Source of the DNA: a virus
Taxonomy: Duplodnaviria > Caudoviricetes
Virus record (IMG/VR): IMGVR_UViG_3300044606_000055
Location: 1-42,057 of that record
Direction: 5' to 3' (one strand)
DNA: 42,057 bases
Made by a program: the position numbers and the translations under genes
Shown here: one piece after another, positions 681 through 17,629 of the stretch
Position numbering within the stretch: position 1 is the first letter of the stretch
Layout of the letters: every line of letters begins with the position of its first letter
Notes under the pieces: generated by a model
What the model was told of the DNA's origin: nothing
Databases searched by the model: none
What the model saw: the letters and a program-made list of their open reading frames with translations, nothing else

Positions 681-737
681 TTTCAATCTCCTTATATCTC
701 TTTAATACTCACTCATACGGTTAATAAATTAATAGTT

Positions 738-1097
738 TTATCTCATTGGTTCACCATTTGGATTAAAAAACACAGGCTCCTCACACTTAGGACATTCAGC
801 ACAAAACCCGTTATTTTTCCAAAATGACCATCTTGTTACCTTGTCATCAATGTCATATAACTCATAGTTTAATATTGGGAATTCACCACCAATATCATAA
901 TATTTTTCTCCGATTTGAGTAATAACATGATCACAACCTTTGCAGTTACCACCCATATTAACCATCTTAGGAATAGCTTCAGGATATAATGCTTTTAAAA
1001 CAAGATGAAATTGATAGCAGCCCCCGTTCATGTAAATAGTTTCTATATACCTGTCGCTATTACGCAAGACATCAATAAATTCCAAAGGTTCTATCAT
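738..1097 (-). CDS. hypothetical protein (GGCYQFH motif, C-terminal CxxC)
   Basis: ORF track; GAGGTG RBS. Confidence 0.75.
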   Translation of the reverse strand: MIEPLEFIDVLRNSDRYIETIYMNGGCYQFHLVLKALYPEAIPKMVNMGGNCKGCDHVITQIGEKYYDIGGEFPILNYELYDIDDKVTRWSFWKNNGFCAECPKCEEPVFFNPNGEPMR

Positions 1098-1110
1098 TTT
1101 AACACCTCGC

Positions 1111-1344
1111 TTAAATTACTGGTTTTATCTCTTGAATGTCCTTTTCGGACAAAGCATATTTCAAATTAGTGTACCTATATTTTATGTTGTGCCGTTCAAT
1201 TGAATGTTCCCACATCCATTCAGAAGACGTTGGTGTTCCGCAATTATGCCATGTCTTTCCACCATCAGAAGAAGCCCTAATCTCTCCAATAAGATATTTA
1301 TTCATATTCAACTCCAAAACACTTAAAACAACGGTTTTAATCAC
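1111..1344 (-). CDS. hypothetical protein
   Basis: ORF track; tiles between neighbours; start uncertain. Confidence 0.6.
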   Translation of the reverse strand: MIKTVVLSVLELNMNKYLIGEIRASSDGGKTWHNCGTPTSSEWMWEHSIERHNIKYRYTNLKYALSEKDIQEIKPVI

Positions 1345-1735
1345 TTATGTAATAATAATCAACTCGTGTTGTTGCTTTACTCTCATCAAAATCCCCGATC
1401 TCCGCCCCTAGTTCTCCATTCTTTTCAATTTCAAATCCCATAAGAGGATAAAATTTGGTTTCCTTTCGATACTTAGTAAAACCTTTCAAATCTAAATCGT
1501 CTCTATCAGATCGGATTCTTGATATTAAATGTAATGGAAGTAATGCAACATATCGCCCTTTAGGTAGATATTCTGTTGGTTCGCCCGACATAAAGGTATC
1601 ATTACCACATCCATTACAGAGAATATAACCATCAAACACATCCCCAAAATTTGCATCACATTCCAGTATAACTAATTTATGATAATACAGAAATCTATCA
1701 TAATCTAGTTTGGCTATTTCAACCGTACAAAACAT
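1337..1735 (-). CDS. hypothetical protein
   Basis: ORF track trimmed to MFCTVE start with GAAAGGA RBS. Confidence 0.7.
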   Translation of the reverse strand: MFCTVEIAKLDYDRFLYYHKLVILECDANFGDVFDGYILCNGCGNDTFMSGEPTEYLPKGRYVALLPLHLISRIRSDRDDLDLKGFTKYRKETKFYPLMGFEIEKNGELGAEIGDFDESKATTRVDYYYISD

Positions 1736-1781
1736 TTTAATTTCCTTTCTCCACGGCCACCGTGGTATGAGTTGTTGGCTG

Positions 1782-1979
1782 TTACCTACTCCTGAATCTA
1801 TTGGGATACCACTGGCATCTTCCACTATTTACATACGGTCTTTGCCCATAAATGGCGCAGCATGTCTCACAATTAATACACTCGTTGCATGTCACACCAT
1901 CGTCCAACAACATGTTATATTCGGCATTCCAATCCTCAGTTCCTTCCCTATATCCTTTAACACGATCTTTTGATTTCAT
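1782..1979 (-). CDS. small Cys-rich hypothetical protein
   Basis: ORF track; AAGGAG RBS; its TAA lies inside motif B. Confidence 0.7.
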   Translation of the reverse strand: MKSKDRVKGYREGTEDWNAEYNMLLDDGVTCNECINCETCCAIYGQRPYVNSGRCQWYPNRFRSR

Positions 1980-2020
1980 ATTTTTCTCCTTTCACGAATT
2001 AAAACGACTTTTTTATTCAC

Positions 2021-2173
2021 TTATTTTATTTCCTTATCTACTATTGTGTAAACCATTACCTGTTTAGGAGCGTCTTGAATTGCCTTGCTTAAATCTTTAA
2101 CGGCCTGATCATGATTGTCTCCTGCAAGTAGATTTAAAATTCTCAACAATAAAACTCCATCTATTAAAACCAT
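2021..2173 (-). CDS. small hypothetical protein (50 aa)
   Basis: Manually read MVLIDGVLLLRILNLLAG...; GGAGGT RBS; flanked by motif A copies. Confidence 0.65.
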   Translation of the reverse strand: MVLIDGVLLLRILNLLAGDNHDQAVKDLSKAIQDAPKQVMVYTIVDKEIK

Positions 2174-2227
2174 TATTACTACCTCCATTTAAAATGATAT
2201 TTCTATTTGTTTAAAATTACTCTTTTA

Positions 2228-2449
2228 TCACACTTCTCGTATCTCAATCATGTCGCCCATGCCATCATAATCTATAGGGCTGCCATCCCACTCAAAATCA
2301 ATCACGTTAGAATACTGACCCAGCCATTTTGTGGCATAATTTTTTGCTTCTACAAATGTATTATAAGCAGATTTGCCCCAATATGAGCCGTACATATTAT
2401 CATTATGATAACAATCTGCTGGTCTACCGCAATCGAATACTTGATACAT
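2228..2449 (-). CDS. hypothetical protein
   Basis: ORF track; AAGGAG RBS. Confidence 0.7.
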   Translation of the reverse strand: MYQVFDCGRPADCYHNDNMYGSYWGKSAYNTFVEAKNYATKWLGQYSNVIDFEWDGSPIDYDGMGDMIEIREV

Positions 2450-2514
2450 AATGATCTCCTTTCATAAGTTAAAAGTGTTGGTTGATACCGATATCTTTAA
2501 AAGGATTCTTTTAA

Positions 2515-2691
2515 TCAATACTTCTCTTCTATTGGGTATGTGCGTTTGGAGTCTATCCAGCCCCACCATTTGCCATCACAATTCCAAACAAAGAACTCTG
2601 TTACATCGCCACAAATATAATCAAATCTCTGTGTTCGTATAGAATAAACCGTACACCTATCTTCACCATCATATATTACTCCAAATCCCAT
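2515..2691 (-). CDS. small hypothetical protein
   Basis: ORF track trimmed to MGFGVIY; GGAAGGA RBS follows motif B. Confidence 0.65.
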   Translation of the reverse strand: MGFGVIYDGEDRCTVYSIRTQRFDYICGDVTEFFVWNCDGKWWGWIDSKRTYPIEEKY

Positions 2692-2744
2692 TTTAAATCC
2701 TTCCTGCGTGGCACACAATTCCCGCTGTTACCTGACGGTGGGCA

Positions 2745-3827
2745 TTAGCCCACCGCAGATATATCTTCGTCATCCGGCAAATCGTCAATGCTCATACCGA
2801 TATCATCAACCGACCTGATATGCGTATCATAGTAATCACGAATTTCGGACAGCCTACGCGCAATAGCTTCGGGTTTACCGCTGCCATACTGACAGGCCAT
2901 GTTATAAGAATTGCTAATAGTAGCCGCCCTCCCCTTTGCACCAAAAAAGCCAAGTATAAAGGCTCTCAGTGCGGTCTGGTCAATTGTAGAGGCCAGCCGT
3001 ACCAAAGAAACCAAGTGTGTCTTGCGGATCATACGTTTTGCGACAGCCGCATTGCTGTTCTGAATCGCATTGTAAACCGCCAGTATGTTATCGAACGCTG
3101 TTTTAATGCGGTCTGCCTGTTCAGCCTTAATCTCCGTTGTGCGGACTATCTCACGCATATCCTTGGCATTGAACGATGGCTTGTCGGTAAAGAGAAGGAT
3201 ATAGGATTTAATTACCATATCTTCGTTGTTATATTTATTCTTTGCCTTTTCAGTGAGCGCCACATCAAATATGGGATGCTCAGAGAGTTCTTTAATCAAA
3301 TCAAACGATTTTGACTGCAAGCGCGTTATCTCAATGGCCGTAAATGGTACACCACCATTCAATCGAGATATCATTTCTTCTCTCTGATCATCGTCCATGT
3401 CCCGATACCAGTACAGGTTAAGATTATAGGTAGTTATTCTATTCTGCACCTCTAATGGCAATTCAGAAAACTTCTTGCCCTCTGCGTCGTACTCCTCGCC
3501 GTTTTCAAGATAAATACGGTTTATATCTTTTTCCATATCAACTGTAGAAAAATCCAATTCATATCCATCGTCAAGATAAAGACAAAAGGCATTTGATCTT
3601 TGCTTTCCCTCAAGGCAGTCATATATACCATTTGTTTCTGACGCATACATAGGCGGTATGGGATATCCAATTATAGCAGAATGAATCAATTTGCTATTGT
3701 GAGTCTTAGACCACACATAATTTCTTTGTACATCATTGTCAAATTTAATCTTATCCTTTGCGACCATATTACAAAGTGTTTTTACAGTCCACGGCAGGTT
3801 TCCCTTGTTTTCAAATAGGTTATTCAT
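2745..3827 (-). CDS. DUF262 (ParB-like/GmrSD N-terminal NTPase) domain protein
   Basis: Motifs VQRNYVW, LIHSAIIGYPIPP, EGKQR (DGQQR variant), RLNGGVPFT. Confidence 0.8.
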   Translation of the reverse strand: MNNLFENKGNLPWTVKTLCNMVAKDKIKFDNDVQRNYVWSKTHNSKLIHSAIIGYPIPPMYASETNGIYDCLEGKQRSNAFCLYLDDGYELDFSTVDMEKDINRIYLENGEEYDAEGKKFSELPLEVQNRITTYNLNLYWYRDMDDDQREEMISRLNGGVPFTAIEITRLQSKSFDLIKELSEHPIFDVALTEKAKNKYNNEDMVIKSYILLFTDKPSFNAKDMREIVRTTEIKAEQADRIKTAFDNILAVYNAIQNSNAAVAKRMIRKTHLVSLVRLASTIDQTALRAFILGFFGAKGRAATISNSYNMACQYGSGKPEAIARRLSEIRDYYDTHIRSVDDIGMSIDDLPDDEDISAVG

Positions 3828-3868
3828 ATTATTTTCTTTCCTTTCTTGATAAAACTTTCCTTATAATT

Positions 3869-3897
3869 ATTATATCATATTTCATAATTTTATTCAA
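3869..3897 (-). promoter_or_regulatory. sigmaA-type promoter for DUF262 gene
   Basis: TTGAAT-17-TATAAT with extended TG on minus strand. Confidence 0.65.
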
Positions 3898-3966
3898 CGA
3901 TCACATAAATCTTTGATAATGGGTACTAGCTATGCAAGATATGGTCAGTACCCACAGGTAAAAGAT

Positions 3967-4083
3967 TCACAGTCCGTTTTCAAAACCCCTTTCAAGCCTC
4001 AACTTGATTTCTGCTCTGTCCATTCCGGCTTCCTCATCTTCTTCCAGTGCTGCCATAATATCATAAAATAAATCTCTTGGCAT
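3967..4083 (-). CDS. small acidic hypothetical protein (38 aa)
   Basis: Manually read MPRDLFYDIMAALEEDEEAG...; GAGGT RBS. Confidence 0.55.
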   Translation of the reverse strand: MPRDLFYDIMAALEEDEEAGMDRAEIKLRLERGFENGL

Positions 4084-4304
4084 AGCTAATACCTCACGCT
4101 TTCTTTTGTATTCCGTCTCATATAACCTCATTAATTATCAATCGCTGCGATATATTTTTATATTCATCTCTTCTCTCCCTTTTCTCGTCTCTTCTCGTCT
4201 TTTACTGTGCCAACCACTTCTTATCAACTTGAGTTCTGGTATTTCATCTTTCTTTTATCTCCTTTTCAAATATTCTTTTCCACATCATCTCCATTTTCAT
4301 TTAT

Positions 4305-4334
4305 ATTTTAACATACTTATATGTATGTTGTCAA
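4305..4334 (-). promoter_or_regulatory. sigmaA promoter with palindromic operator in spacer
   Basis: TTGACA-18-TAAAAT with TG; AACATAC-N6-GTATGTT at 4310-4329. Confidence 0.65.
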
Positions 4335-4366
4335 TGTATTTTTAAAATTGTTTTAAAAGGATTGTT

Positions 4367-4597
4367 TTATTCTATTATTATTCCGGCATTTTCACAATAC
4401 TGTGCAAAAGTAACGCCGTGGCAATCTATAAAAGTTTCTAAATCGCTAAAGAATATTTGTGCCATAAAATCATTATATTCTTTACGTGCCTCTTCTAATT
4501 TTAATCTCTTATTATGATCCCAATAATTAAGATCATATTCATCTGCCCTACAACCGCAACCCTTAGCTCCGTAATAATCATCAGCTTTTATTGACAT
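4367..4597 (-). CDS. hypothetical protein
   Basis: ORF track; AAGGAG RBS; bounded by motif A copies. Confidence 0.7.
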   Translation of the reverse strand: MSIKADDYYGAKGCGCRADEYDLNYWDHNKRLKLEEARKEYNDFMAQIFFSDLETFIDCHGVTFAQYCENAGIIIE

Positions 4598-4630
4598 TTA
4601 ATTCTCCTTTCCTGTTATAAAATTGCTTTT

Positions 4631-5194
4631 TTATTTCATCTTTTCAATAGGTTTTTCAAGCAGGTTATAGACTGTATATTCTGCTGGCTCACTTCCCCAT
4701 ACAGTCCATAGACATTCCATTGTAGGTGCTCCGCCCTTTTGTCCAAACAAGAAGTCTGGCCTCCATGTAAGAGGTAAAATGGCCGTTGGTTTGAATTTAT
4801 TAAATAAATCCAATCTTGATTTAGAATGCCAATACTGCGATTTTAACAATAGTGCAAACGGTACATTATGCGATATACACTTTTCAATAAATTCAACAGA
4901 GAATTTGAATGGTGGATTTGTAATAATCCAATCACAATATTTCTTTTCTGTTGTTAAAAAATCTTCAATTGTGCCATAACCAAAATTATTAATATCCGAA
5001 GATACAACTTGATATCCCATACTTGTAATGGCGTTTGACATATGTCCTTCTCCGCAAGCTGGTTCCCATATGATTGTCTTAGTAGGCAAATTAAGATATT
5101 TCATAAGAGCAATTGTAACTTCTGGTGGTGTCGGGTAAAATTCTGTCTTACTACGATCTATTGCACTTCTGTTTGTTAATAAATTTCCTTCCAT
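4631..5194 (-). CDS. orphan DNA amino-methyltransferase (N6-adenine type)
   Basis: FYPTP, WEPACGEG (SAM motif I), ITNPPF (motif IV). Confidence 0.85.
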   Translation of the reverse strand: MEGNLLTNRSAIDRSKTEFYPTPPEVTIALMKYLNLPTKTIIWEPACGEGHMSNAITSMGYQVVSSDINNFGYGTIEDFLTTEKKYCDWIITNPPFKFSVEFIEKCISHNVPFALLLKSQYWHSKSRLDLFNKFKPTAILPLTWRPDFLFGQKGGAPTMECLWTVWGSEPAEYTVYNLLEKPIEKMK

Positions 5195-5198
5195 TAAT

Positions 5199-5378
5199 TT
5201 ACCTCCATATCAATTTTGCAATCTTATCTTCAATTTCTTTTGCTCTTTTTACTCTATCTTGGACGCTAGTTTTATCACGATTATCTAATGCAAAGTCATG
5301 ACATATCCAATATATTTCTGTTAAATCTGCTCCGTCTATTTCAATTTCATATTTACATTTTCTTGAGTTTGCCAACAT
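5199..5378 (-). CDS. small hypothetical protein (59 aa)
   Basis: Manually read MLANSRKCKYEIEIDG...; TAATG coupling with upstream gene. Confidence 0.6.
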   Translation of the reverse strand: MLANSRKCKYEIEIDGADLTEIYWICHDFALDNRDKTSVQDRVKRAKEIEDKIAKLIWR

Positions 5379-5575
5379 TATTTAACTCCTTTCTCAATGT
5401 ATAACCCCATATCTTCTATTACATCAATTTTAAACCCGCTCTTAACATCGGTATTTATTGCTTCGTCACAGTAATAAAAAACGCCCCAATCTATTCCGTC
5501 CTTCCCATAAACATGAACCAATTTTAAACTACCATTGCACTCATTTCTTGTAGCACACATACCACCACATTCCAT
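5378..5575 (-). CDS. Cys-rich hypothetical protein
   Basis: ORF track; GGAGG RBS. Confidence 0.7.
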   Translation of the reverse strand: MECGGMCATRNECNGSLKLVHVYGKDGIDWGVFYYCDEAINTDVKSGFKIDVIEDMGLYIEKGVK

Positions 5576-5586
5576 TTCGAACCTCC

Positions 5587-5811
5587 TTAATCATGGCTCT
5601 TATAGCATTCTTCTGCTTCATCTTCATTGTTGTAGATGCAACCACAAGCAGGACAAGCATATTCTCTTGGCTCATAAGTCATGCATCCATTGTTGGTTAT
5701 AATAACTGCCTCGCCGCCATATTCACATTCATTATCCATATAATGAAATTCGCAATCCGTTCTGTTACATTGAATGTTATTACACATATTTTTAATCTCC
5801 TTTCTATTCAT
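5587..5811 (-). CDS. Cys-rich (putative Zn-binding) hypothetical protein
   Basis: ORF track; CPAC and other Cys clusters. Confidence 0.65.
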   Translation of the reverse strand: MNRKEIKNMCNNIQCNRTDCEFHYMDNECEYGGEAVIITNNGCMTYEPREYACPACGCIYNNEDEAEECYKSHD

Positions 5812-6061
5812 CTACATTAACAGTACGTTCTTCCTCTTCATAATCAGAACATTCGCCGCCGCCACCCTCAATACAAGCAGTTTTAAAATTTAATCTGCCG
5901 CGCTTCTTGCAAAACTGAACATCCCTTGGATTTCTGCCACCATCAGTCCACATTTCCCCACGCTCCCAATAAGCGAACATGTTATGGCAGTTGCGTAGGG
6001 TACAATTTGTATAATGAGGTTCGTGGTCAAGATGTTTACAACATCTAAAACTTAAATTCAT
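5804..6061 (-). CDS. Cys-rich hypothetical protein
   Basis: ORF track; AAGGAG RBS. Confidence 0.7.
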   Translation of the reverse strand: MNLSFRCCKHLDHEPHYTNCTLRNCHNMFAYWERGEMWTDGGRNPRDVQFCKKRGRLNFKTACIEGGGGECSDYEEEERTVNVDE

Positions 6062-6095
6062 TTTATTCTCCTTTCATTGTGTTAAAATTTGCATT

Positions 6096-6293
6096 TTATC
6101 TCAATTGATCTATTTTCTTTTTACAGTCTTCCCACGCTTCACTTAGCCAATTATGAAATTTTGAAGAATGACCACTTATCTTTCTTCCTCCATTTTCCAT
6201 CACTATTGTACCGTCACCAACAAATACACATTTCCAGCCCTTATAATTTTTAGAACCAGATACAACTATATCAACTAATTCATCGTAGCCCAT
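6096..6293 (-). CDS. hypothetical protein
   Basis: ORF track; AAGGAG RBS. Confidence 0.7.
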   Translation of the reverse strand: MGYDELVDIVVSGSKNYKGWKCVFVGDGTIVMENGGRKISGHSSKFHNWLSEAWEDCKKKIDQLR

Positions 6294-6295
6294 AA

Positions 6296-6466
6296 CTAAT
6301 TCTCCTTTTCATCATTTTCTGAATTCTCACAACCACATTCCTCACACTGAAACAACAACGACTTATCGCCATATACAATGCCTTTATATTTCTGCCATCT
6401 GTAATTCCCACAATCAACACAGAATAAATCTACTCGTTGCCCTACTTTTAAATTCTCGCTGTTCAT
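6296..6466 (-). CDS. Zn-ribbon hypothetical protein
   Basis: CVDC...CEEC; start trimmed to MNSENL. Confidence 0.65.
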   Translation of the reverse strand: MNSENLKVGQRVDLFCVDCGNYRWQKYKGIVYGDKSLLFQCEECGCENSENDEKEN

Positions 6467-6499
6467 TATATTTCCTTTCCGTGTGTTAAAATCCACAAT

Positions 6500-6631
6500 T
6501 TATTGCTTTTCAGACTCTTCTTTTTCTTCCTTTTTACCAAACCAAACCTCTTCAAGACTTCTCTTATCTTTACCGTTGTAGATCATATCTTTTATAATAG
6601 CTTTTTCAACGGCTGTTATAGATTTTCTCAT
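6500..6631 (-). CDS. small hypothetical protein (43 aa)
   Basis: Manually read MRKSITAVEKAIIKD...; AAGGAG RBS; between motif A copies. Confidence 0.6.
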   Translation of the reverse strand: MRKSITAVEKAIIKDMIYNGKDKRSLEEVWFGKKEEKEESEKQ

Positions 6632-6705
6632 TTTTCAAACTCCTTTCATGTAATAGAATCAGCGTTTTAACATCATGTGCCGTGGCACAAACTCTGTTCT
6701 GTTAC

Positions 6706-7104
6706 CTACTTAGCCTTATTAGCAAACTCTATTGCCCTCTTCTTTTCCCTCGCGTTTCTCTGATAGCACCTCCAGCACATACCCATTGCTGCATTAGCTG
6801 GTTCGCCGCACTCCTTACACGGCGGGAGATCGCTCAAATCATCCTCTGTCGGCACATCTGCTGGCCGCATCAATTCGTCCATTTCCACACCTAGTATGTG
6901 GCACAACTTATATGCCGTATCAAACGGAGGTTTGTTACCCCTATTGGTTTTATACCAGCCGTACACCGTTTGAGTGGACACACCTACACGGTCAGCTATA
7001 TATCCGGCCTCCACATCCTTTGTGAGCCGCCTGACATTTGCCGCTACTACTAGCCGTGGTGTTGCGTTGTATTTGTCGATTAACTCAATTATGCTCATAT
7101 CCAT
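6706..7104 (-). CDS. XRE-family HTH transcriptional regulator with C-terminal Zn finger
   Basis: IADRVGVSTQTVYGW...P.FDTAYKLCHILGVEMDELM; CKEC...CWRC. Confidence 0.8.
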   Translation of the reverse strand: MDMSIIELIDKYNATPRLVVAANVRRLTKDVEAGYIADRVGVSTQTVYGWYKTNRGNKPPFDTAYKLCHILGVEMDELMRPADVPTEDDLSDLPPCKECGEPANAAMGMCWRCYQRNAREKKRAIEFANKAK

Positions 7105-7111
7105 GTCTCCT

Positions 7112-7139
7112 ATTATATCATGCTACCTTTGGTTGTCAA
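7112..7139 (-). promoter_or_regulatory. sigmaA promoter directly upstream of XRE gene
   Basis: TTGACA-16-TATAAT with extended TG. Confidence 0.65.
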
Positions 7140-7151
7140 TATAAATATGAA

Positions 7152-7226
7152 TTAATCACTATAATCAAAGTCTATTAATTCGTCAATATCGGAATAAAGC
7201 CAATCCGTCACTTTCTTATCGTCCAT
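7152..7226 (-). CDS. very acidic 24-aa peptide
   Basis: MDDKKVTDWLYSDIDELIDFDYSD; GAAAGGA RBS. Confidence 0.5.
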   Translation of the reverse strand: MDDKKVTDWLYSDIDELIDFDYSD

Positions 7227-7264
7227 TTTCAATTCCTTTCCGTTCACTTAAAATGAACATTCTA

Positions 7265-7495
7265 TCATTTTATTCCTAAAGCATACTTTTCTGATCGACA
7301 TATTTTTTTGAGTTCTTTGTATTTCTCTTCATCGACGACCAAAGTTCCATCATATATTTCTACAATACAATCATGCATTGCGTACCCTACAGATAACCAA
7401 TAAGGAGTTCTATGATATTCTTTAAGATTCTTAGATGCAATCGTTTTAATTCTTCTATCCCATTGTTCTTGACTAAGATAAAGTAATTTTATCAT
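7265..7495 (-). CDS. hypothetical protein
   Basis: ORF track trimmed to MIKLL; GAGGT RBS. Confidence 0.65.
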   Translation of the reverse strand: MIKLLYLSQEQWDRRIKTIASKNLKEYHRTPYWLSVGYAMHDCIVEIYDGTLVVDEEKYKELKKICRSEKYALGIK

Positions 7496-7530
7496 AATTA
7501 ACCTCATTTCCTACTTTTAAAATGGGCATT

Positions 7531-7620
7531 TTATTTTGCCGAAATTTTTCTAGTAATATAGCCACTTACGAATCCAATTCCAAAACCAATAAAGATCATA
7601 CAAGCCCAAACATATTCCAT
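7531..7620 (-). CDS. small membrane peptide (29 aa)
   Basis: MEYVWACMIFIGFGIGFVSGYITRKISAK; AGGAGG RBS. Confidence 0.6.
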   Translation of the reverse strand: MEYVWACMIFIGFGIGFVSGYITRKISAK

Positions 7621-8740: not shown

Positions 8741-8811
8741 TTTAAATTCCTTTCTGCGTTATAACATTTTAATTGTTTTAATAACACTTAAAATGTTTTA
8801 AATTATTAATT

Positions 8812-9015
8812 TTATTTATCTCTTAATATAACCCTGAATAAATCTTTCTTTATTTCTGTAATGACAAGTGTAAATTTATCTGTTATTTCTTTTTGGTTTT
8901 TAAAACTGTTTAACCCTTCATCATCACATTTAAAGATTAATCCGTTTTGCGGATATATGCGGCCTAAAGAACCATATATTAATTTTTCCGCTACATTCAA
9001 ATCTATTTCTATCAT
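8812..9015 (-). CDS. hypothetical protein
   Basis: ORF track; AGGAGG RBS. Confidence 0.7.
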   Translation of the reverse strand: MIEIDLNVAEKLIYGSLGRIYPQNGLIFKCDDEGLNSFKNQKEITDKFTLVITEIKKDLFRVILRDK

Positions 9016-9698: not shown

Positions 9699-9726
9699 TT
9701 TAAAATCTCCTTTCAAAATAAAAGCT

Positions 9727-9903
9727 TCATTTTATTAATCTTTTCGTGGCCGCTAAAAGAATTTTGCTGATTGCGGTATAATGTAAGTCTAATTCTTCGC
9801 GCTCCTGTTCTGTTGTGCTGGATGTAGTTTCTAATTGTGCGTTATTGGATTTTACCAAACAATCCATTGATTCTTTCAACTTATCAATTGCCCATATGTT
9901 CAT
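9727..9903 (-). CDS. small hypothetical protein (58 aa)
   Basis: Manually read MNIWAIDKLKESMDC...; abuts upstream stop. Confidence 0.6.
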   Translation of the reverse strand: MNIWAIDKLKESMDCLVKSNNAQLETTSSTTEQEREELDLHYTAISKILLAATKRLIK

Positions 9904-10206: not shown

Positions 10207-10261
10207 TGAATTAAAAACCTCCTTTTATTGCCTTAATGTCGCGCTGTGCGCTTCGTTAAGG

Positions 10262-10834
10262 CTAGTAATTCAGATAGGCAACCTTACCATTTGTCAACTC
10301 AATATACTGTTCCTCTTCCAGCATATCAGCACCGAATTTTTCATAGTCAAAATATATTTCATTTTCCTTTGTTACAAACCCTAGCTGTTCCGCTTCGTCT
10401 TCTGATGCTTCGTCTATGCTGTCCCATACCGTAGACAGAATACCACGGTCACGATATTCAAGGCCATAGTTATTAAAGAGGATGTTAATATCATCGTCAT
10501 TAAGATTGTATTCCTCTTTGAGATATTCTTTTTCTTCCTGCTGGACTTCCTCAAAAAGTTGCTCATTTTCATCGGACAAAATTTTGTCAATAATCGGCTG
10601 TAAATCAATATCTTTTGGCTCTGCAAGCGCGTAATATTCCTGTTCGGAAAGAATGGTTTTAACTTCGCTATAAGGCACTTCGGCCTTATAACTCATGCTG
10701 AAACATGCTCCCTCTACATTAAATTTGCCATCAATGCAAACGTGCTTTGTACGTAAATCAGCAACATCAATATATTTCACGCAATCCCGATCCTCTGAAT
10801 TCACTTCCTTATACATGAACACTCTATTTCTCAT
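10262..10834 (-). CDS. acidic ArdA-like antirestriction protein (putative DNA mimic)
   Basis: Very D/E-rich; C-terminal YFDYEKFGADM resembles the ArdA YFDYE.(Y/F)GRDL motif. Confidence 0.55.
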   Translation of the reverse strand: MRNRVFMYKEVNSEDRDCVKYIDVADLRTKHVCIDGKFNVEGACFSMSYKAEVPYSEVKTILSEQEYYALAEPKDIDLQPIIDKILSDENEQLFEEVQQEEKEYLKEEYNLNDDDINILFNNYGLEYRDRGILSTVWDSIDEASEDEAEQLGFVTKENEIYFDYEKFGADMLEEEQYIELTNGKVAYLNY

Positions 10835-10866
10835 GATTGTTACCTTCCTTTCATTTCTTGATTATA

Positions 10867-10895
10867 ATTTTATCATGCCCGAATTAGTTTGTCAA
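10867..10895 (-). promoter_or_regulatory. sigmaA promoter for ArdA-like gene
   Basis: TTGACA-17-TAAAAT with extended TG. Confidence 0.7.
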
Positions 10896-10970
10896 TATAC
10901 TTTGCTAAAATCTCAAAAGTTTTTCAAACTTTTTCGTTTTAGCGTGTGCCGTGGCCTATTGGCTGTTCTG

Positions 10971-11126
10971 TTACCTCTCATGATTGCGTTTCTTTCTGTA
11001 CTCATCGAGCGATATCACATTGCTGCTGTTTGTGGGTTTACACAAAGTAATGACCTCCAATATTTCCTTTATCCGCTTGCCATTTTCTTCACGGCAATAT
11101 TTTTCGTATTCTTCTATGCTCATCAT
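10971..11126 (-). CDS. small hypothetical protein (51 aa)
   Basis: Manually read MMSIEEYEKYCREENGKR...; AAGGAG RBS; TAA inside motif B. Confidence 0.6.
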   Translation of the reverse strand: MMSIEEYEKYCREENGKRIKEILEVITLCKPTNSSNVISLDEYRKKRNHER

Positions 11127-11165
11127 AGTTTTTATTTCTCCTTTGATTGTGTTAAATTCGGTATT

Positions 11166-11657
11166 TTAAAACATTTTATGAAAATCTTTTTCAAACTTTG
11201 TGCCGATCCAATCAATTTTAACGGCATAACAACTCAAAGCATCAAGTTTATCATCGTTCCGAATCCAATTGATTGTGTGTTGTGTATTTACGATTCTTCT
11301 TTTCTTTTCCCATTCAATAGCATCAACATTTTCAGGCTTGGGAGTTTCCCAATCAATAAAAGTGTCGCCATGATATGTTGCTTCTCCACCTGTTTCCATT
11401 CTAATCTGTTCGCCTCTGGAATGAACAATAAGACCAATTTTTGAAACATCCGTTATTTCAAAGTCGTTGACGGAAATACCGTACCACGCCTTTCCTTCAT
11501 CTATGTAATCATCAAGTCCTATCCTTGTTGTTGCTCCGCAATGACCACAAATGAAAAGAATTTCTTTATCCTGTTCGTTACATACCTTTTCAAGTTTTTC
11601 ATTCTCAATAAAATGCACTCGTCCACAATTGCAAAACCTTACATCATATTTTCTCAT
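11166..11657 (-). CDS. Zn-binding hypothetical protein
   Basis: ORF track trimmed to MRKYDVRFCNCGRVH; CGHC. Confidence 0.75.
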   Translation of the reverse strand: MRKYDVRFCNCGRVHFIENEKLEKVCNEQDKEILFICGHCGATTRIGLDDYIDEGKAWYGISVNDFEITDVSKIGLIVHSRGEQIRMETGGEATYHGDTFIDWETPKPENVDAIEWEKKRRIVNTQHTINWIRNDDKLDALSCYAVKIDWIGTKFEKDFHKMF

Positions 11658-11697
11658 TTTAAATTCCTTTCTGTGCCGTGGCACATAGTTAGTGCTG

Positions 11698-11937
11698 TTA
11701 CATAAAATGATAATCTTTATTTGCATACTGGATTATAATGTCGGCTGCGGCTATTGCTCCACATTCAGAATAATCAAAGAGCCATAATTGTCTCATATAA
11801 TCATCAGTAAAAAGAATACCATTTACGCGCTTTTCATATCCGGCACAAATTGTTTCTTCGCCTTTATTAGCATTGAGATATATTAACTCTTTATCAAGTA
11901 ATTTTTTCTTGATCATTTCTTGCGTATAAGGCAACAT
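11698..11937 (-). CDS. hypothetical protein
   Basis: ORF track trimmed to MLPYT; TAA inside motif B. Confidence 0.7.
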   Translation of the reverse strand: MLPYTQEMIKKKLLDKELIYLNANKGEETICAGYEKRVNGILFTDDYMRQLWLFDYSECGAIAAADIIIQYANKDYHFM

Positions 11938-11976
11938 AATTTCTCCTTTCAATGATTAAAATCATTGTTTTAACTG

Positions 11977-12324
11977 TTATAGTTTTACATAACCATACTG
12001 TATTAAACTATTTGCTACACAACAAAGCTGCTTATATTTGTTTAAAAACCTATCGCTCTTTTCTGTTTTCCCATTATGTAATGCTCTGTGTATTTCAACA
12101 GTATTCCCATAACTTAAAAACCTACATAACCAAGGCTCAAAACCCATTGTCCCAATATATTCTAAACTCCATTCATTAACGGAATGAAAAGTTAAAATAT
12201 ATGTGTGATCATAGTTTTTATTTCTAATTTTCCACTTGTTTTTGTCTATTTTTTCAATACTATATGATATTTCAATAGCCTTTTCCGTTTGTTCCTTACT
12301 TGTGATATTACTAAATTTAATCAT
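11977..12324 (-). CDS. hypothetical protein
   Basis: ORF track trimmed to MIKFS; GGAG RBS inside motif A. Confidence 0.7.
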   Translation of the reverse strand: MIKFSNITSKEQTEKAIEISYSIEKIDKNKWKIRNKNYDHTYILTFHSVNEWSLEYIGTMGFEPWLCRFLSYGNTVEIHRALHNGKTEKSDRFLNKYKQLCCVANSLIQYGYVKL

Positions 12325-12344
12325 AATTAAAACGCTCCTTCTAT

Positions 12345-12461
12345 TCACCTTCCTGCGATAAGTTTATCGCGCCAGATATTTGTACCAAAGATATCTCCGA
12401 CATATTCTAGTCCTAATTGGTAGTCCTCCATGCTCGTAAAAGAAAAATTATTGGTTTTCAT
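12345..12461 (-). CDS. small hypothetical protein (38 aa)
   Basis: MKTNNFSFTSMEDYQLG...; AAGGAGG RBS. Confidence 0.55.
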   Translation of the reverse strand: MKTNNFSFTSMEDYQLGLEYVGDIFGTNIWRDKLIAGR

Positions 12462-12709
12462 GCTGCGACCTCCTTATTATTTGATTATATTCAAATCATT
12501 ACTGATTAGTTTGTCAACATATTTTTAAAATATTTATGCCGTGGCCTAGAAAATTTTCTGTTACCGTGGTGAATGCTCGTCCACTTTAGATTAGTTTATG
12601 CCGTGGCATAAAATGTTTGCTGTTACCCTTCTCTACTGTCAGTAGAATTACATATACTGTCAAAAATATATTGTGGGTTTTTCCGTGTTTTCCTGACTCT
12701 ACTCACAGT

Positions 12710-12913
12710 TTACCCGATAACTTTTAATATCTGCTGCCGTATTTTATCGCTGGAATCATATTTGCTAATATGCCATGTTTTCACAAGCACATTATTTTTG
12801 TACTTGTATATCATAATTGTGTCTGCTCTTAACTCAATACGGAGATCACCACGGACAAAATTAAGATTATCCGCAAAAGTTTTAAAACCATGCTTTTCTA
12901 AAAATTCCTTCAT
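12710..12913 (-). CDS. hypothetical protein
   Basis: ORF track; AAGGAG RBS. Confidence 0.7.
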   Translation of the reverse strand: MKEFLEKHGFKTFADNLNFVRGDLRIELRADTIMIYKYKNNVLVKTWHISKYDSSDKIRQQILKVIG

Positions 12914-13053
12914 TCCTATTCTCCTTACATTTTATTTCAACGTGGTACAATTGCCACGCTGTTATCTAGAATGCTTGTCCAAAATGCCAAAGTCTCACGC
13001 ATAAATGCGTTTCGCTTTGACTAAAGACTTGTCCACTTTTTTATATTTTATGC

Positions 13054-13132
13054 CGTGGCACGTATGCCGCGCTGTTACCCCGTGGCACGTATGTCGCGCT
13101 GTTACCCCGTGGCACAGGTATACGGCTGTTAC
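13054..13132. repeat. three tandem 27-bp units of motif B
   Basis: CGTGGcacgtatgccgcgCTGTTACcc / CGTGGcacgtatgtcgcgCTGTTACcc / CGTGGcacaggtatacggCTGTTAC. Confidence 0.95.
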
Positions 13133-13216
13133 CCTGACAGGGTATGCCCTATGCGCTGCCGATTGACTATATATCGTGTGCCGATATATCATATTGTGAT
13201 ATACTCAATTCATAAC

Positions 13217-13245
13217 ATACTAATATAATATGTTTTATCTGTCAA
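13217..13245 (-). promoter_or_regulatory. sigmaA promoter upstream of motif-B cluster
   Basis: TTGACA-17-TAGTAT. Confidence 0.55.
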
Positions 13246-13472
13246 GCGCATAGTATATCATAGTAGTATAGTATACTAGCATATAGAATAAACGTTCGGT
13301 ATTATGTCAAGTCATACAAGCGATTTTAAGACGCTATTTTTATATGAGTCAATACTTTATAAGGCTAAAATGTTTTCGCGTCTCTATGCGGCTCTAGTGG
13401 CCTCATATCGCGTATTAGATAGCACTATTTTTAATGTTATCTAATATGAGATATGATCCAGCGAATAAAGGC

Positions 13473-13523
13473 AAACAAAAAAGCCTATAAAACAATAGCA
13501 TTATAACTATTGCTTTATAGGCT
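13473..13523 (-). terminator. Rho-independent terminator
   Basis: AGCCTATAAA...TTTATAGGCT stem followed by TTTTTGTTT on minus strand. Confidence 0.7.
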
Positions 13524-13575
13524 CAGGCTGCCACAATCGCGCATTAAAAATGCTTGTTGTGGCTATGCTCAGGCA

Positions 13576-13698
13576 CTATTTATATTCTATCTCATTTTTG
13601 CATTTTTTACAGTAAAGCAAAACATTTTTTAATATATATCCGTCTTTTACCTTCGCTATTTTTTGGCCGCATATCGGGCAGTAAAGCCAATTAATCAT
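13576..13698 (-). CDS. 40-aa Zn-ribbon protein (Cys-rich KTR/Com-like)
   Basis: MINWLYCPICGQKIAKVKDGYILKNVLLYCKKCKNEIEYK. Confidence 0.7.
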   Translation of the reverse strand: MINWLYCPICGQKIAKVKDGYILKNVLLYCKKCKNEIEYK

Positions 13699-13847
13699 AT
13701 AGTTATTACCTGCCTTTTGTATTCATCACGATATAATTTTTCAGCTTCTTTTTTCGTATATCCGTAATATTGGCGAATACCCAAAAAACCATATATTGCC
13801 CACGCGCCACGAATATTTTTTTCAGTAAAAAAGATAATACTTTTCAT
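13695..13847 (-). CDS. small hypothetical protein (50 aa)
   Basis: MKSIIFFTEKNIRGAWAIYG...QYYGYTKKEA; GGAGG RBS. Confidence 0.65.
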   Translation of the reverse strand: MKSIIFFTEKNIRGAWAIYGFLGIRQYYGYTKKEAEKLYRDEYKRQVITI

Positions 13848-13850
13848 GTT

Positions 13851-14030
13851 TCAAGCCTCCAGCATTATATAGTCTTTATAAGTCAATGCCATACATGCAG
13901 CCGCTTCAATTTGTGCGGCTTTTTTAGTCTTATGGAATGATCCGAAAACAGGGATATTAGAATATCCTTTTTTATGGGCATACCATAAGCCGATTGTTTC
14001 ATCTTTAGAGACAGTATAATAACGTTTCAT
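13851..14030 (-). CDS. small hypothetical protein (59 aa)
   Basis: MKRYYTVSKDETIGLWYAH...; GGAGG RBS. Confidence 0.65.
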   Translation of the reverse strand: MKRYYTVSKDETIGLWYAHKKGYSNIPVFGSFHKTKKAAQIEAAACMALTYKDYIMLEA

Positions 14031-14140
14031 TGCTTCATATCCTCCAATAGTTTATTTACACTCTATAGAGTGTTTATTGCCGGATATCCGCAAATATCCA
14101 GCCATAAAGACTCTAAACAATGAATAGAATCTGTTTTTTA

Positions 14141-14407
14141 TCATCTTATAACGTGATGAAAAGTATTAACGTCAAAATAATGATAATGGGTATATGGTTT
14201 ACATGATCCGAACGCATTTTTGCGTCTAGTGGCCGATACAATATAACAGATATGTTTTTCGCCGCAGATATCGGTTATTTCTACAGTATTTTTTAATAAC
14301 CGCATATCGGATAAACGTTCGCCAAAAAACTTTAGTGTATCATGGTCAAAAAAATGCGTTTCCCCTCCTTTGTTTTCAATGTTTCTTTTCAATTCATAAA
14401 ATTCCAT
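14141..14407 (-). CDS. hypothetical protein
   Basis: ORF track; HFFDHDTLKFFG motif; AAGGAG RBS. Confidence 0.75.
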   Translation of the reverse strand: MEFYELKRNIENKGGETHFFDHDTLKFFGERLSDMRLLKNTVEITDICGEKHICYIVSATRRKNAFGSCKPYTHYHYFDVNTFHHVIR

Positions 14408-14486
14408 GATATTATATTCTCCTTTACTATTTTTATTTTAAAGCAAATATCTAATAGCACTCGTTTGAATGCTATTAGTAAATGTT

Positions 14487-14879
14487 CTAAAGTCGTTCAC
14501 ATTCAAGTAATTTATCATAAAGACTGCCCAAAAGCCATTTTGCGTTTTTGGTCTCTTCTACGCATGAATTATATATTTTTTCTGCTTTTCTGCTATCTTC
14601 ATCATATCCGAATTCGCTTGCCCATTCTTCAAAAGATGAATAATTGTCTGTACTATCCACAATAATACAATCCAATAAATCTTCGATTGTGGGATCATCT
14701 TTCACCCCGCTGCCCTGACTGTAATATATTTCTATATTGCGTCCTTTATAACAGATATCACATTTGAAATGTTTTGATCCTTTTCCCCACTCATTATTAT
14801 TATCCGGTCTTTTTTCAATCTGTCTATACTCCAATGTAATATTGTTTTCCTCTGCGAATTCTTTTATAGTCTTTTCCAT
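14487..14879 (-). CDS. acidic hypothetical phage protein
   Basis: ORF track; FEEWASEFGYDEDSRKAEKIY segment. Confidence 0.75.
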   Translation of the reverse strand: MEKTIKEFAEENNITLEYRQIEKRPDNNNEWGKGSKHFKCDICYKGRNIEIYYSQGSGVKDDPTIEDLLDCIIVDSTDNYSSFEEWASEFGYDEDSRKAEKIYNSCVEETKNAKWLLGSLYDKLLECERL

Positions 14880-14971
14880 TTTTATATACTTCCTTTACTT
14901 TAATATTAATAGTCTTTTAGACTATTTTAGATTGTGCGCTCACGAATAGCAAGCGCATAACATAAAATATT

Positions 14972-15193
14972 CTATTTATTGCACCGCATACATTCATTCA
15001 GATAATACCGAACACGGCCAAAAATGATATATGCATTGCCTTTTGCGGTATAATATACCTTGTGATATCGTGGTGTATCGTCATTAATACCGCATAGCAT
15101 TCTATCATTAATGCCATATTCAACGTCATAAACATTAAGTGATGCAGTATTGCATATTCCCCATGAAGCAATAACTTTTTTATCTGTTTTCAT
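14972..15193 (-). CDS. hypothetical protein
   Basis: ORF track; RBS. Confidence 0.7.
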   Translation of the reverse strand: MKTDKKVIASWGICNTASLNVYDVEYGINDRMLCGINDDTPRYHKVYYTAKGNAYIIFGRVRYYLNECMRCNK

Positions 15194-15293
15194 TTTCCTT
15201 TACTCCTTTTTTATCTGATATGATATCAGATTATTTATGAATAGTCATTAATAAATAATGACTATCAATAAACATTCTAATAACTTAAAATGC

Positions 15294-15560
15294 TTATTCT
15301 ATTGTATGATCCGCGACAAAAACGGCATTATGCTTTATTTCCGGCGCGTATTGGCATTGAGCGATATAAAGCACAACGTTATTATATTTATTGAGTAATG
15401 CTTCTTTTTCTTCATTTTTAAGTGGTTTACACAATTTATACAACGTGCCATATATTCTTTTTCCGTCTCTTTTTCGGTTTACACTCATACGGCAAAAGTC
15501 ATAATAGTGATATCCTTCATTAGTATAAAAGTCATATTCTTTTAATTTAGTCTTTTTCAT
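15294..15560 (-). CDS. hypothetical protein
   Basis: ORF track; AAGGAG RBS. Confidence 0.7.
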   Translation of the reverse strand: MKKTKLKEYDFYTNEGYHYYDFCRMSVNRKRDGKRIYGTLYKLCKPLKNEEKEALLNKYNNVVLYIAQCQYAPEIKHNAVFVADHTIE

Positions 15561-15660
15561 TGTGGTAAACTCCTTTTAATAATTTTAAAATACTTTGACT
15601 ATTAATCAAAATATTTTGAAAAGATATCTAACATATTATTAGATATCAATTCAAAGTATT

Positions 15661-15786
15661 TCAATTTTTAATTCTGACATATCCCCTCTTTGCTAATTGT
15701 CTATCGAACCATTTTTCACCTGCCCACAAAATAATAGGCAATATGACCGCGACAATGCCGCATATTATCATCAGTAAAGCAAACAT
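15661..15786 (-). CDS. small membrane protein (41 aa)
   Basis: MFALLMIICGIVAVILPIILWAGEKWF...; GGAGG RBS. Confidence 0.6.
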   Translation of the reverse strand: MFALLMIICGIVAVILPIILWAGEKWFDRQLAKRGYVRIKN

Positions 15787-15857
15787 TAGTATAAATCTCC
15801 TCCCCACTGATGAATGATTGTAATTGACTGATCCTCATAATCATCATTGTTATACAT
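15786..15857 (-). CDS. 23-aa acidic peptide
   Basis: MYNNDDYEDQSITIIHQWGGDLY; TAATG coupling to next gene. Confidence 0.4.
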   Translation of the reverse strand: MYNNDDYEDQSITIIHQWGGDLY

Positions 15858-15872
15858 TGTTTTCTTTTCCTT

Positions 15873-16022
15873 TCAAATTGCTATTGCATAATCGTTACAA
15901 CGTGTTACTTCATATCGCGTCCAGCTTGCGCGGCTATTGTTATGTTCCGCAAAACTGCGACACGCCTTTTCTGATCCCTGATAACAGATATCGTCCGACA
16001 AAAAATCAATAACACAAAACAT
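15873..16022 (-). CDS. small hypothetical protein (49 aa)
   Basis: MFCVIDFLSDDICYQGSEKAC...; AAGGAGG RBS. Confidence 0.6.
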   Translation of the reverse strand: MFCVIDFLSDDICYQGSEKACRSFAEHNNSRASWTRYEVTRCNDYAIAI

Positions 16023-16294
16023 TTTAAAATTTCCTCCTTATTTTTCGATTATATTTTGACGCAATCTCACAATTAAAAATTGTTTCGTCGCGTCAAGCTT
16101 TTAAAAATATAAATTGTTTATCGCTGCATTCTTATAAACTATTGTAAACAAGAATACAGCCACAAAGAATTTACGCTTGGTCAATACGAAGTTTACGAAG
16201 TAAACGAGATATTGACATAAAACAAGTTTTTTATTACATTCCGTGGTACATTCTTTGTTCTGTTACCGTGGTATGATATGCGGCCTGTTACCTG

Positions 16295-16822
16295 TTATAT
16301 AAATATTTTTGATACAAAACATTCGTCATTAGATTTTTCAATATCTTCTAATGTTTTTTTGAGACTCCTATATATATCATTGATAATACTATAGGCAGTG
16401 TTACGATAGAAGAATTCGCCGTATTTATTCCGTTTGTCTTCTGCTTCACTTAATGCATAATCGTCCATAGTGCCATAATGAATGCCACGTTTTTGCACTT
16501 CTTTAAAATCTTCTGCTATTTGTTTAAATAACGTTTGTATTTGATTGTATGATATTGTGTATTGTTCATAGTTTTCTTCTATTATTTTTTTGTACTTGTT
16601 TTTATAGGATATGCTTATATTTTTTTGTTTTGCCAGTTTGATAACGTCTTTATATAAGCGCATAATATCAAAACCGTGTATAAATTCTTTTGGTCTGTTT
16701 ATATAGCAATAATTTGTATTATCGCTATTTACTTTTACAATATCGTCATTAATAAGATATTGCACATTCGGCACTAATTCTTTTTGCAAATATTCTTTGT
16801 CTTTTACTTCATCGTACTGCAT
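16295..16822 (-). CDS. hypothetical protein
   Basis: ORF track; GGAGGT RBS. Confidence 0.75.
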   Translation of the reverse strand: MQYDEVKDKEYLQKELVPNVQYLINDDIVKVNSDNTNYCYINRPKEFIHGFDIMRLYKDVIKLAKQKNISISYKNKYKKIIEENYEQYTISYNQIQTLFKQIAEDFKEVQKRGIHYGTMDDYALSEAEDKRNKYGEFFYRNTAYSIINDIYRSLKKTLEDIEKSNDECFVSKIFI

Positions 16823-16823
16823 A

Positions 16824-17093
16824 CTATTTACCTCCAGTAAAAATAGAATAATCTATCATAGGTTTATTAACCTTTTGATATTCTTCCTTTACGAATTGTT
16901 CATCTTTTGCAATTTGCCTTTTTTGTGCTTCTGTTATTGACTTTTCTTTTGTCGGATCAAAGTCTATACAATGTTTCCCGCAATGCCAAAAGTTTTCGCT
17001 GCGATATTTAAGAGAATATAAAAGGCAGTTTTCACATTGTGGCGTATTGGTACAATTCTTCTTTGCTTGCAATTCTCTTTCCTGTTTAGTCAT
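16824..17093 (-). CDS. Cys-containing hypothetical protein
   Basis: ORF track trimmed to MTKQERE; GGAGGT RBS. Confidence 0.7.
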   Translation of the reverse strand: MTKQERELQAKKNCTNTPQCENCLLYSLKYRSENFWHCGKHCIDFDPTKEKSITEAQKRQIAKDEQFVKEEYQKVNKPMIDYSIFTGGK

Positions 17094-17176
17094 ATTCTTA
17101 TTACCTCCATTATTGTTTATTGTTTGGCACTCGTTAAAATGCCAAAACATAAGCAATAAAATAGATTATTTATTTG

Positions 17177-17518
17177 TTAGTTGAAATATTGACTATAGTA
17201 TTCAGATAAATTATCAAGTTGTTTATCTGTCATTCCAATAGCTTCATTGTCAATATTTTTTACTACCCATATAGAATTGTCAACGCTATGAATATATAGT
17301 CTTTCAAAAAGTTTGCCCGTTTTATAATCATATACATTATAAATTTTTTGATTGAAATAAATTAATGCTGAATGATTATAATACTCAATATCAATATGGC
17401 CGTGAATATCAAGTTTTTTAACTTCACTAATGATATTATTAAAATGTTTTTCCTTTTCTTCTCTATCCGTCAATGACTGATATTCATTTGGTTTATACTC
17501 GATATACTTAATTAACAT
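17177..17518 (-). CDS. hypothetical protein (first gene of leftward arm)
   Basis: ORF track trimmed to MLIKYIE; GGAGG RBS. Confidence 0.7.
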   Translation of the reverse strand: MLIKYIEYKPNEYQSLTDREEKEKHFNNIISEVKKLDIHGHIDIEYYNHSALIYFNQKIYNVYDYKTGKLFERLYIHSVDNSIWVVKNIDNEAIGMTDKQLDNLSEYYSQYFN

Positions 17519-17629
17519 TGTCTTTAATCCTCCATTTATTAATAAAATATCTTTTTTATGTTTAAAAGTAAATATCAATTGGCATTCGCTCTATTAAGTA
17601 AATGCCAATTGGAAATACTCTTAGTTGAC

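Follow-up and report, generated by a model that had tools for sequence, protein, structure and literature searches.

The attC sites of integrons carry a pair of boxes of the pattern RYYYAAC..GTTRRRY, and the boundary sequences of lambdoid phages are address-specific homologies that are not known to have a common consensus. On Acinetobacter plasmids, accessory modules lie between two-arm pdif sites with a 6-base spacer, which are served by XerC/XerD. The inner XerC bases of pdif read TATAA, and sites recombine if their spacers are identical or deviate at a single base, so that the crossover is directed by matching spacers (PMC13141974); two crossovers replace single modules (Fig. 14B legend of that paper). 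Here, we analyzed a 42,057-nucleotide stretch of a Caudoviricetes virus (IMG/VR record IMGVR_UViG_3300044606_000055; in the following, "the window" refers to this whole 42-kb record, which is about 36% complete), in which small accessory genes are punctuated by copies of a 16-base dyad, TARAW-N6-WTYTA. Comparisons with related phages suggest that these copies are fixed sites that keep their centre and order while the adjoining genes change, and that they are likely crossover points at which two co-resident phage genomes swap the block lying between two sites. We assign this reading a probability of roughly 0.55.

We found 30 matches to the dyad in the whole window compared to a mean of 5.5 and a maximum of 12 in 100 shuffles, and 16 copies of the exact form TAAAA-N6-TTTTA compared to 0.69. 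A de novo dyad search in the window ranked the motif first. Further counts refer to the left arm (positions 1-17600), which comprises about 49 small leftward genes with about 48 junctions and is 76% coding. This arm holds 27 degenerate copies, of which 13 are exact, while Markov models of order 1 to 5 predict 2.0-2.3 and 0.3-0.6 copies, respectively. An earlier note on this DNA had counted 26 copies in 725..17558 (13 exact, 13 with one mismatch) against about 0.5 exact copies expected; we recovered the same 26 and one additional copy with two mismatches. Its view that only the variants TAGAA/TTCTA and TAAAT/ATTTA are tolerated was too narrow, as four further one-mismatch copies are present in the arm (3850, 12883, 13327, and 17019). 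The enrichment is restricted to a spacer of 6 bases; all other spacers from 0 to 15 gave 0-2 exact copies each, and control patterns with direct-repeat or reversed arms gave 0-3 copies. The centres of the 30 window copies are all different from each other.

The copies are located at gene junctions, as the note had claimed, in 26 of 27 cases. In 20 of these, the upstream stop codon lies inside the site or at most 12 bases away, and six are intergenic; the remaining copy (6579..6594, two mismatches) is within an open reading frame (ORF) and is probably a chance match. The claim does not hold in the opposite direction, since a site is present at no more than about every second one of the roughly 48 junctions between the called genes. 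A unit between sites thus comprises one to five genes and is not always a single ORF. The structural arm contains three exact copies, and all of them are inside ORFs (28467..28482 in the terminase gene, 31985..32000 in a 65-amino-acid ORF, and 38117..38132 in a 181-amino-acid ORF). An exact dyad is also present within the terminase gene of phi6255 (65891-65906), which may be chance. Almost none of the array genes was named by Pfam or PHROGs.

The relation of the sites to gene exchange was analyzed in six Bacillus Spbetavirus genomes (SPbeta, phi3T, Goe12, BUCT083, and SPbetaL4 as a whole, and 85 of the 125 kb of Goe14), which contain 25-40 exact copies each (34 in SPbeta); SPbetaL7 and the Enterococcus phage H1 were included in pattern counts only. 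Breakpoints of homology accumulate at the sites: 135 of 1233 are at most 10 bases from a site compared to 14.8 expected, and 96 are within 2 bases. Likewise, homology is broken at 79 of the 132 gene ends that carry a site compared to 339 of 1095 without one. In anchored comparisons, which fix one flank only and whose counts are not independent events because the genome pairs share ancestry, the far flank was unrelated in 180 of 667 cases. Among those 180, the 16-mer was identical in 118 and carried at most two mismatches in 26 more, i.e. the whole site was kept in 144. An identical 16-mer followed by an immediate break was observed in 100 of the 667 site comparisons (15%) but in only 20 of 3165 controls at stop codons without a site (0.6%), for which the far flank was unrelated in 254 cases and the 16-mer was kept in 70. 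In addition, both flanks were unrelated in 155 of 361 pairs of sites with the same centre.

The order of the sites is preserved as well. Each genome pair shares 14-29 whole 16-mers, which are collinear in 14 of the 15 pairs. The intervals between 19 common addresses are filled by several unrelated alleles, and 329 homologous segments remain in their own interval; the 17 flagged exceptions all involve SPbetaL4 and, as judged by inspection, mostly represent a spurious second relaxed match. Joins between unlike centres amount to two distinct events, namely a precise site-to-site indel of 1.8 kb between SPbeta and SPbetaL4, and a module shifted by one address, which lies between different centre pairs in Goe12 and SPbetaL4. 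Repeated centres are absent from four of the six genomes, and the other two have one distant pair each; because we estimate that a genome should contain about one such pair anyway, this uniqueness excludes an excess of duplicates only and is not proof of selection. A census of shared islands (94 at sites, 1363 elsewhere) was disregarded, since AT-rich repeats in multiple copies and chance words dominated it. Another AT-rich multi-copy element, AGAATAAAAATAAAAT, occurs in Bacillus Spbetavirus intergenic regions (SPbeta and phi3T, L023-L036), sometimes right after a dyad site.

Homology ends were also compared in the kin of the window phage, i.e. in contigs from three runs of one study that contain parts of the array. 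For this comparison, 18 of the 46 loose ends and 24 of the 44 pieces were evaluated, excluding two loose ends shorter than 25 letters, one adapter, and contig ends. Six of the 22 distinct listed ends are at most 3 bases from a site (10212, 11169, 7265, 12882, 12325, and 2004), three are in a second repeat described below, and the others are elsewhere. With an expected share of 0.037 (the sites cover 3.7% of the arm), this corresponds to p = 1e-4 in a test that includes no gene-boundary control. Together with the counts from the Bacillus genomes, these ends support that part of the note's reading in which the sites are points of gene exchange. The module at 10212..11168 (minus strand) consists of a 190-amino-acid gene, a promoter, a copy of the second motif, and a 51-amino-acid gene. 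It is covered by near-identical kin pieces that stop at 10212 and 11169, with both whole sites kept (10212..10227, centre GGAGGT, which also constitutes the ribosome-binding site of the next gene, and 11153..11168, centre TACCGA) and with unrelated sequence in the kin DNA outside both, including upstream of 11169; the block is not covered by any one kin contig, and the pieces may come from more than one phage. Another kin contig has in common with the window only the 33 bases at 7233-7265, i.e. the site at 7249..7264 (centre TGTTCA) and the ribosome-binding site, with unrelated flanks on both sides, before it rejoins the window at 8383. Here, 376 other bases replace 1117, and the order to the next shared gene is kept. 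The homology of relatives further stops at 12882 next to a degenerate site (12883..12898), which is one mismatch beyond the pattern of the note, at 12325 next to the site at 12328..12343 (centre GGAGCG), and at 6648 next to that at 6654..6669 (centre CGCTGA), while a short piece ends at 2004 inside the site at 2000..2015 (centre AAGTCG).

Beyond these contigs, single-protein scans of viral contigs did not reveal close relatives, the array DNA gave only three short, weak matches to five related contigs, and 0-3 centres each were in common with 16 distant genomes, which is chance level. A 25-base match of 96% was noted between G004:27501-27525 and window positions 12316-12340, covering most of the 12328 site; G004 is a distant relative, and its site is degenerate. 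Overall, the comparisons make it probable that the sites are preferred joints of exchange.

The half-site variants are symmetric relative to transcription. This symmetry, the strict spacing of 6 bases, the weak RNA pairing, the end of conservation one base outside the arms, and the lack of attC boxes point to a protein dimer on double-stranded DNA. Conservation of the centre even where both flanks were replaced may further indicate that strands are exchanged across the centre and that the protein does more than bind. Two arms around a fixed 6-base spacer correspond to the core-site architecture of recombinases, as the note had recognized, and we lean towards the view that a tyrosine recombinase acts on the sites. 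According to this view, a dimeric Xer-type tyrosine recombinase would bind the two TAAAA arms and exchange strands across the six-base centre. Efficient exchange would take place only between matching centres, each centre thereby representing an address. Two crossovers would exchange a module at its position, so that nothing is deleted, inverted or reordered, as the comparative pattern suggests, and a rare crossover between unlike centres would lead to the gain, loss or displacement of a module, of which the two events mentioned above may be examples.

The motif itself is distributed across a group of phages. De novo dyad searches ranked it first in the window and eight other genomes and second, behind its own one-base extension, in G002; it was not among the top dyads in six other complete genomes, nor in the 34-kb fragment G001. 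Hosts of motif-rich phages include Bacillus, Geobacillus, Mammaliicoccus, and Clostridioides. Of 21 additional long contigs, 13 reach 10 copies or more and a number twice that of the reversed control. Two host assemblies gave 101 versus 76 and 40 versus 50, the first including a phage contig. We did not find a description of the motif in SPbeta-like phages in full-text searches, which did not extend to subscription papers such as the original SPbeta genome paper, and it is not mentioned in the passages on repeats and motifs of 10.1101/2021.11.22.469490. The motif is a real, group-wide feature that has apparently not been described before.

With regard to the enzyme, the note had proposed to look for tyrosine recombinases, and the window indeed encodes one of the phage-integrase type (24747..25778, minus strand) with the catalytic residues R, H-x-x-R, H, and Y present. 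It matches PHROG integrases, groups with the integrase of phiCD211, and sits in a lineage-specific insertion with TnpB. It is not an integron integrase (IntI; 19.7 bits on TIGR02249 compared to a cut-off of 265, in a contig that is about 36% complete). As it is not common to the motif-bearing group, it is unlikely to be the enzyme of the sites and was rejected as such; the YopP and MrpR families were also rejected, as their distribution does not follow that of the motif. From sequence comparison, the best phage candidate is a YomM-like recombinase of the tail region, whose gene would probably be located just past the right end of the contig: in G001, a YomM-like gene closely follows the homolog of the last full gene of the window. 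In the tree, the YomM-like clade comprises seven motif-rich genomes and one motif-poor genome, and its association with the motif gave p = 0.026 with kinship ignored when all records outside profile building were used. The fold predicted for the YomM-like protein from its sequence alone had a pLDDT of 39 and was therefore discarded. Host XerC/XerD are an alternative candidate.

Several observations weigh against crossover at the sites by a dedicated enzyme. No phage gene family is present in all nine motif-rich genomes and at the same time absent from all six motif-poor ones. The YomM clade was found in 9 of 13 motif-rich compared to 2 of 8 motif-poor new contigs (p = 0.08, kinship ignored) and is absent from the near-complete or complete motif-rich genomes G023, G025, and phiCD211. 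Moreover, the arginine of H-x-x-R is a lysine in SPbeta YomM and in YopP, and 5-6 bases per arm is little compared to a Xer site; in 557 pooled sites, conservation does not extend past position -1. About 89% of the breakpoints in the Bacillus genomes (1098 of 1233) are away from sites; by count, the sites are one route of exchange alongside ordinary homologous recombination and not the main one. In four SPbeta/phi3T hybrids and one extrachromosomal fragment, the crossovers are located within identical blocks of 1.4-18 kb or within short blocks that contain no site, and none of these five has a crossover at a lone 16-base site; short back-and-forth switches in the hybrids were taken as internal repeats or sequence differences. 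The phi3Ts-specific fragment that is replaced between phi3T and phi3Ts is not bounded by sites either. In an evolution experiment, 15 of 16 junctions are reported to be homologous, and the single nonhomologous SPbeta/phi3Ts junction was placed "following yosA" (10.1101/2020.05.06.055103).

We consider this latter junction a possible lead for crossover at a site. Between SPbeta 116251-116800 and all of phi3T, the sole common word of at least 15 bases is a site-containing 18-mer (SPbeta 116414-116431, phi3T 107931-107948), 91 bases past the yosA stop codon. This site is one of five lone sites common to SPbeta and phi3T (SPbeta 69424, 88400, 116415, 117535, and 118470), and homology to SPbeta stops one base past it in 7 of 15 matching phage records. 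A 55-base stretch of 89% identity at the start of yosC is, however, an alternative place for the junction.

The explanation that competes best, although we regard it as rather unlikely, dispenses with a tyrosine recombinase and attributes the crossovers to general machinery such as the Sak4-like annealing protein YorG, RecA, or a dyad-cutting nuclease or resolvase, which would use 16-33 shared bases. It accounts for every comparative result and for the lack of a co-distributed recombinase, and the shared islands sometimes reach the ribosome-binding site, as do the 33 bases at 7233-7265. Short conserved boundary sequences have also been proposed as a source of mosaicism (PMC3029335). On the other hand, plain homology needs no identical palindromic arms at each junction, in phages with terminases that are 23-59% alike, and the YorG family is present in six of nine motif-rich but in all six motif-poor genomes.

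An operator or stoperator array is improbable. Here, a dimeric protein would control transcription or organize the DNA, and breakpoints at the edges would reflect survival of those recombinants that keep the site and whole genes. Many intergenic copies are also typical of Cluster A stoperators (PMC3029335), tyrosine-recombinase folds act as repressors in SPbeta (MrpR, PMC10516654), and the only place in the literature where we met the literal pattern is the predicted RbkR operator of the archaeon Thermofilum, which has the same consensus (PMC5397151). Binding alone, however, would not explain why the six free bases persist where the sequence on either side has been exchanged (155 of 361), and most copies are not at promoter matches. 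In addition, the motif is constant across genera, whereas operators tend to be private, like the second repeat of the window, and the element recognized by MrpR, which has 15 bases and is located at 10 listed promoters, is a different one (PMC10516654).

The note itself had favoured an integron-like system, which is considered here together with Tn916-like cassettes, i.e. circles that are excised and inserted elsewhere without matching centres. The 1.8 kb site-to-site indel and the module found between different centre pairs in Goe12 and SPbetaL4 speak for such cassettes, and the reading of the note is supported in so far as the sites mark gene exchange; integron-like excision and insertion of single-ORF circles is quite improbable. 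Insertion of circles would yield kept and changed centres at about 1:1, but kept centres are far commoner, which agrees better with replacement at the original position. Homologous segments do not leave their interval, and reordering as known from integrons was not seen, with addresses collinear in 14 of 15 pairs and the two heterologous events as exceptions. A search for the box pattern detected paired attC boxes at none of the 27 junctions; folding of the junctions (best strand) gave a median z of -1.3, with 8 of 27 at or below -2. The YomM-like and YopP proteins tested had no match to TIGR02249. The lack of duplicated centres, attC boxes, and IntI argues for module replacement at fixed addresses and not for an integron. 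It is very improbable that the copies act in the early transcript as RNA hairpins, be it for processing, for pausing or for translational coupling. Sites do overlap stop codons and precede ribosome-binding sites, and arm pairing exceeds 0.5 in context for 6 of 27 sites. However, the arms pair with a mean probability of 0.21, the five A-U pairs have a cost of +1.6 kcal/mol at the one site evaluated, the loop length is fixed at 6, and variants are equal on both arms including those that break pairing.

Judged by its genes, the window is part of an SPbeta-like phage, because its terminase large subunit (27533..29329, plus strand) is 35.6% identical to SPbeta YonF over 97%. It has the yonJ-yonG-yonF-portal block that characterizes SPbeta-like phages, and its YonJ, YonG, portal, and capsid-region homologs cluster with SPbeta; a 91%-identical YonJ-like protein was found on a 120-kb contig. 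The right arm comprises sigma-factor-like, YonJ-like, TnpB, integrase, RuvC-like, terminase, portal, and further structural genes, with the sigma-factor-like gene (20677-21630, PHROG 5767) at the head of the structural arm. An IS200/IS605 TnpB (above the NCBIfam cut-off) and the oppositely oriented integrase occupy 23154-25778 between the YonJ-like and RuvC-like genes, which in the relative G001 are separated by only about 0.9 kb. A low-complexity, very AT-rich tract with a 26-base period lies between the early and structural arms and might be an origin or packaging region.

The first array gene is preceded by the site at 17543..17558 (sense centre AAGATA), which is followed towards lower coordinates by those at 17157..17172 (AATCTA), 16218..16233 (AACTTG), 15286..15301 (TAAGCA), 14963..14978 (AGAATA), 14125..14140 (AACAGA), 11957..11972 (CAATGA), 9719..9734 (TGAAGC), 8799..8814 (TTAATA), 7518..7533 (TGCCCA), 6487..6502 (TGTGGA), and 6083..6098 (TGCAAA). 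The site at 4618..4633 (AAGCAA) overlaps the stop codon of a DNA methyltransferase gene (4631-5194), which, together with a GmrSD_N/ParB-like domain protein (2745-3827), is among the few recognizable cargo genes. That at 4354..4369 (CAATCC) is 20 bases upstream of a strong sigma-70-type promoter match. Near-consensus matches of this type occur within the array on the minus strand at 7139, 10895, and 4334, suggesting that modules have promoters of their own. The array continues with sites at 2498..2513 (GAATCC) and 2212..2227 (GAGTAA), the latter 6 bases from another at 2190..2205 (ATATCA), and ends with those at 1324..1339 (CCGTTG), 1112..1127 (CCAGTA), which covers the last codons and stop of an ORF, and 725..740 (CTATTA).

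The second repeat, GTAACAG-N13-CCACGG, is present in 14 copies (at most two mismatches) between positions 1760 and 16291 of the window, all in a single orientation, with a triple tandem at 13053-13132 and with copies at gene ends and upstream of promoters. It was not found in 16 other genomes, and a scan for it returned one unrelated locus. The repeat, which contains the 3 of 22 listed homology ends mentioned above, is likely the phage's own operator or a second junction element.

It has long been debated whether phage genomes come to differ at gene boundaries by targeted exchange at boundary sequences or by recombination at random positions with subsequent selection. A defined 16-base site in a large group that includes the laboratory model SPbeta makes this question directly testable in Bacillus subtilis with known parents. 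We also consider, tentatively and with less confidence than in the reading of the sites as crossover points, a dedicated genome-wide system of address-coded cassette exchange, in which one recombinase would use a short symmetric frame with 30-60 orthogonal centres per genome, so that phages of the same species could swap accessory modules in register. If true, recombinase-mediated cassette exchange would have a counterpart in nature, which would use a site far below the length of any Xer site and, to our knowledge, any lox site. A recombinase reading such short sites with orthogonal centres might become a multiplex cassette-exchange tool.

Among known systems, the repressor operators of temperate phages, SPBRE/MrpR (PMC10516654) and the stoperators of Cluster A mycobacteriophages (PMC3029335), also occur in many short intergenic copies. 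They are, however, repressor sites of 13-15 bases, and stoperators are asymmetric and phage-specific, in contrast to the symmetric dyad with its free but address-conserved centre. PeSL cassettes of T4-type phages are likewise repeated intergenic elements in a variable early region with modular shuffling, but they combine a promoter and a terminator, recombine mutually, and release mini-circles (PMC2839356). The sites described here have 16 bases, are neither promoters nor terminators, and keep their order; none of 9 terminator-like matches coincides with any of the 27 sites, and their arms pair weakly. With integrons and CALIN (PMC4889954), the window shares an array of small co-oriented, function-unassigned genes parted by recombination-type sites, from which it differs by the absence of IntI and attC boxes, by internal promoters, by several genes per unit, and by the lack of reordering. 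The boundary (linker) sequences proposed for lambdoid phages are also short conserved gene-boundary sequences that would allow in-place exchange of unrelated modules (PMC3029335), while here one palindromic frame with strict spacing recurs at all addresses and across genera. Like pdif, the sites consist of two arms around a 6-base spacer, and the inner pdif arm TATAA resembles TAAAA; pdif arms are asymmetric and 11 bases long, modules are inverted and reordered, and spacers recur within a plasmid (PMC13141974), whereas the phage sites have symmetric arms of 5-6 bases, centres that are unique per genome, and a fixed order in a 130-kb phage. The comparative pattern fits crossover at matching spacers, while the laboratory hybrids crossed in long homology. 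By analogy, the sites would work most like single-module exchange between pdif sites and, in doing so, may fulfil the old boundary-sequence idea.

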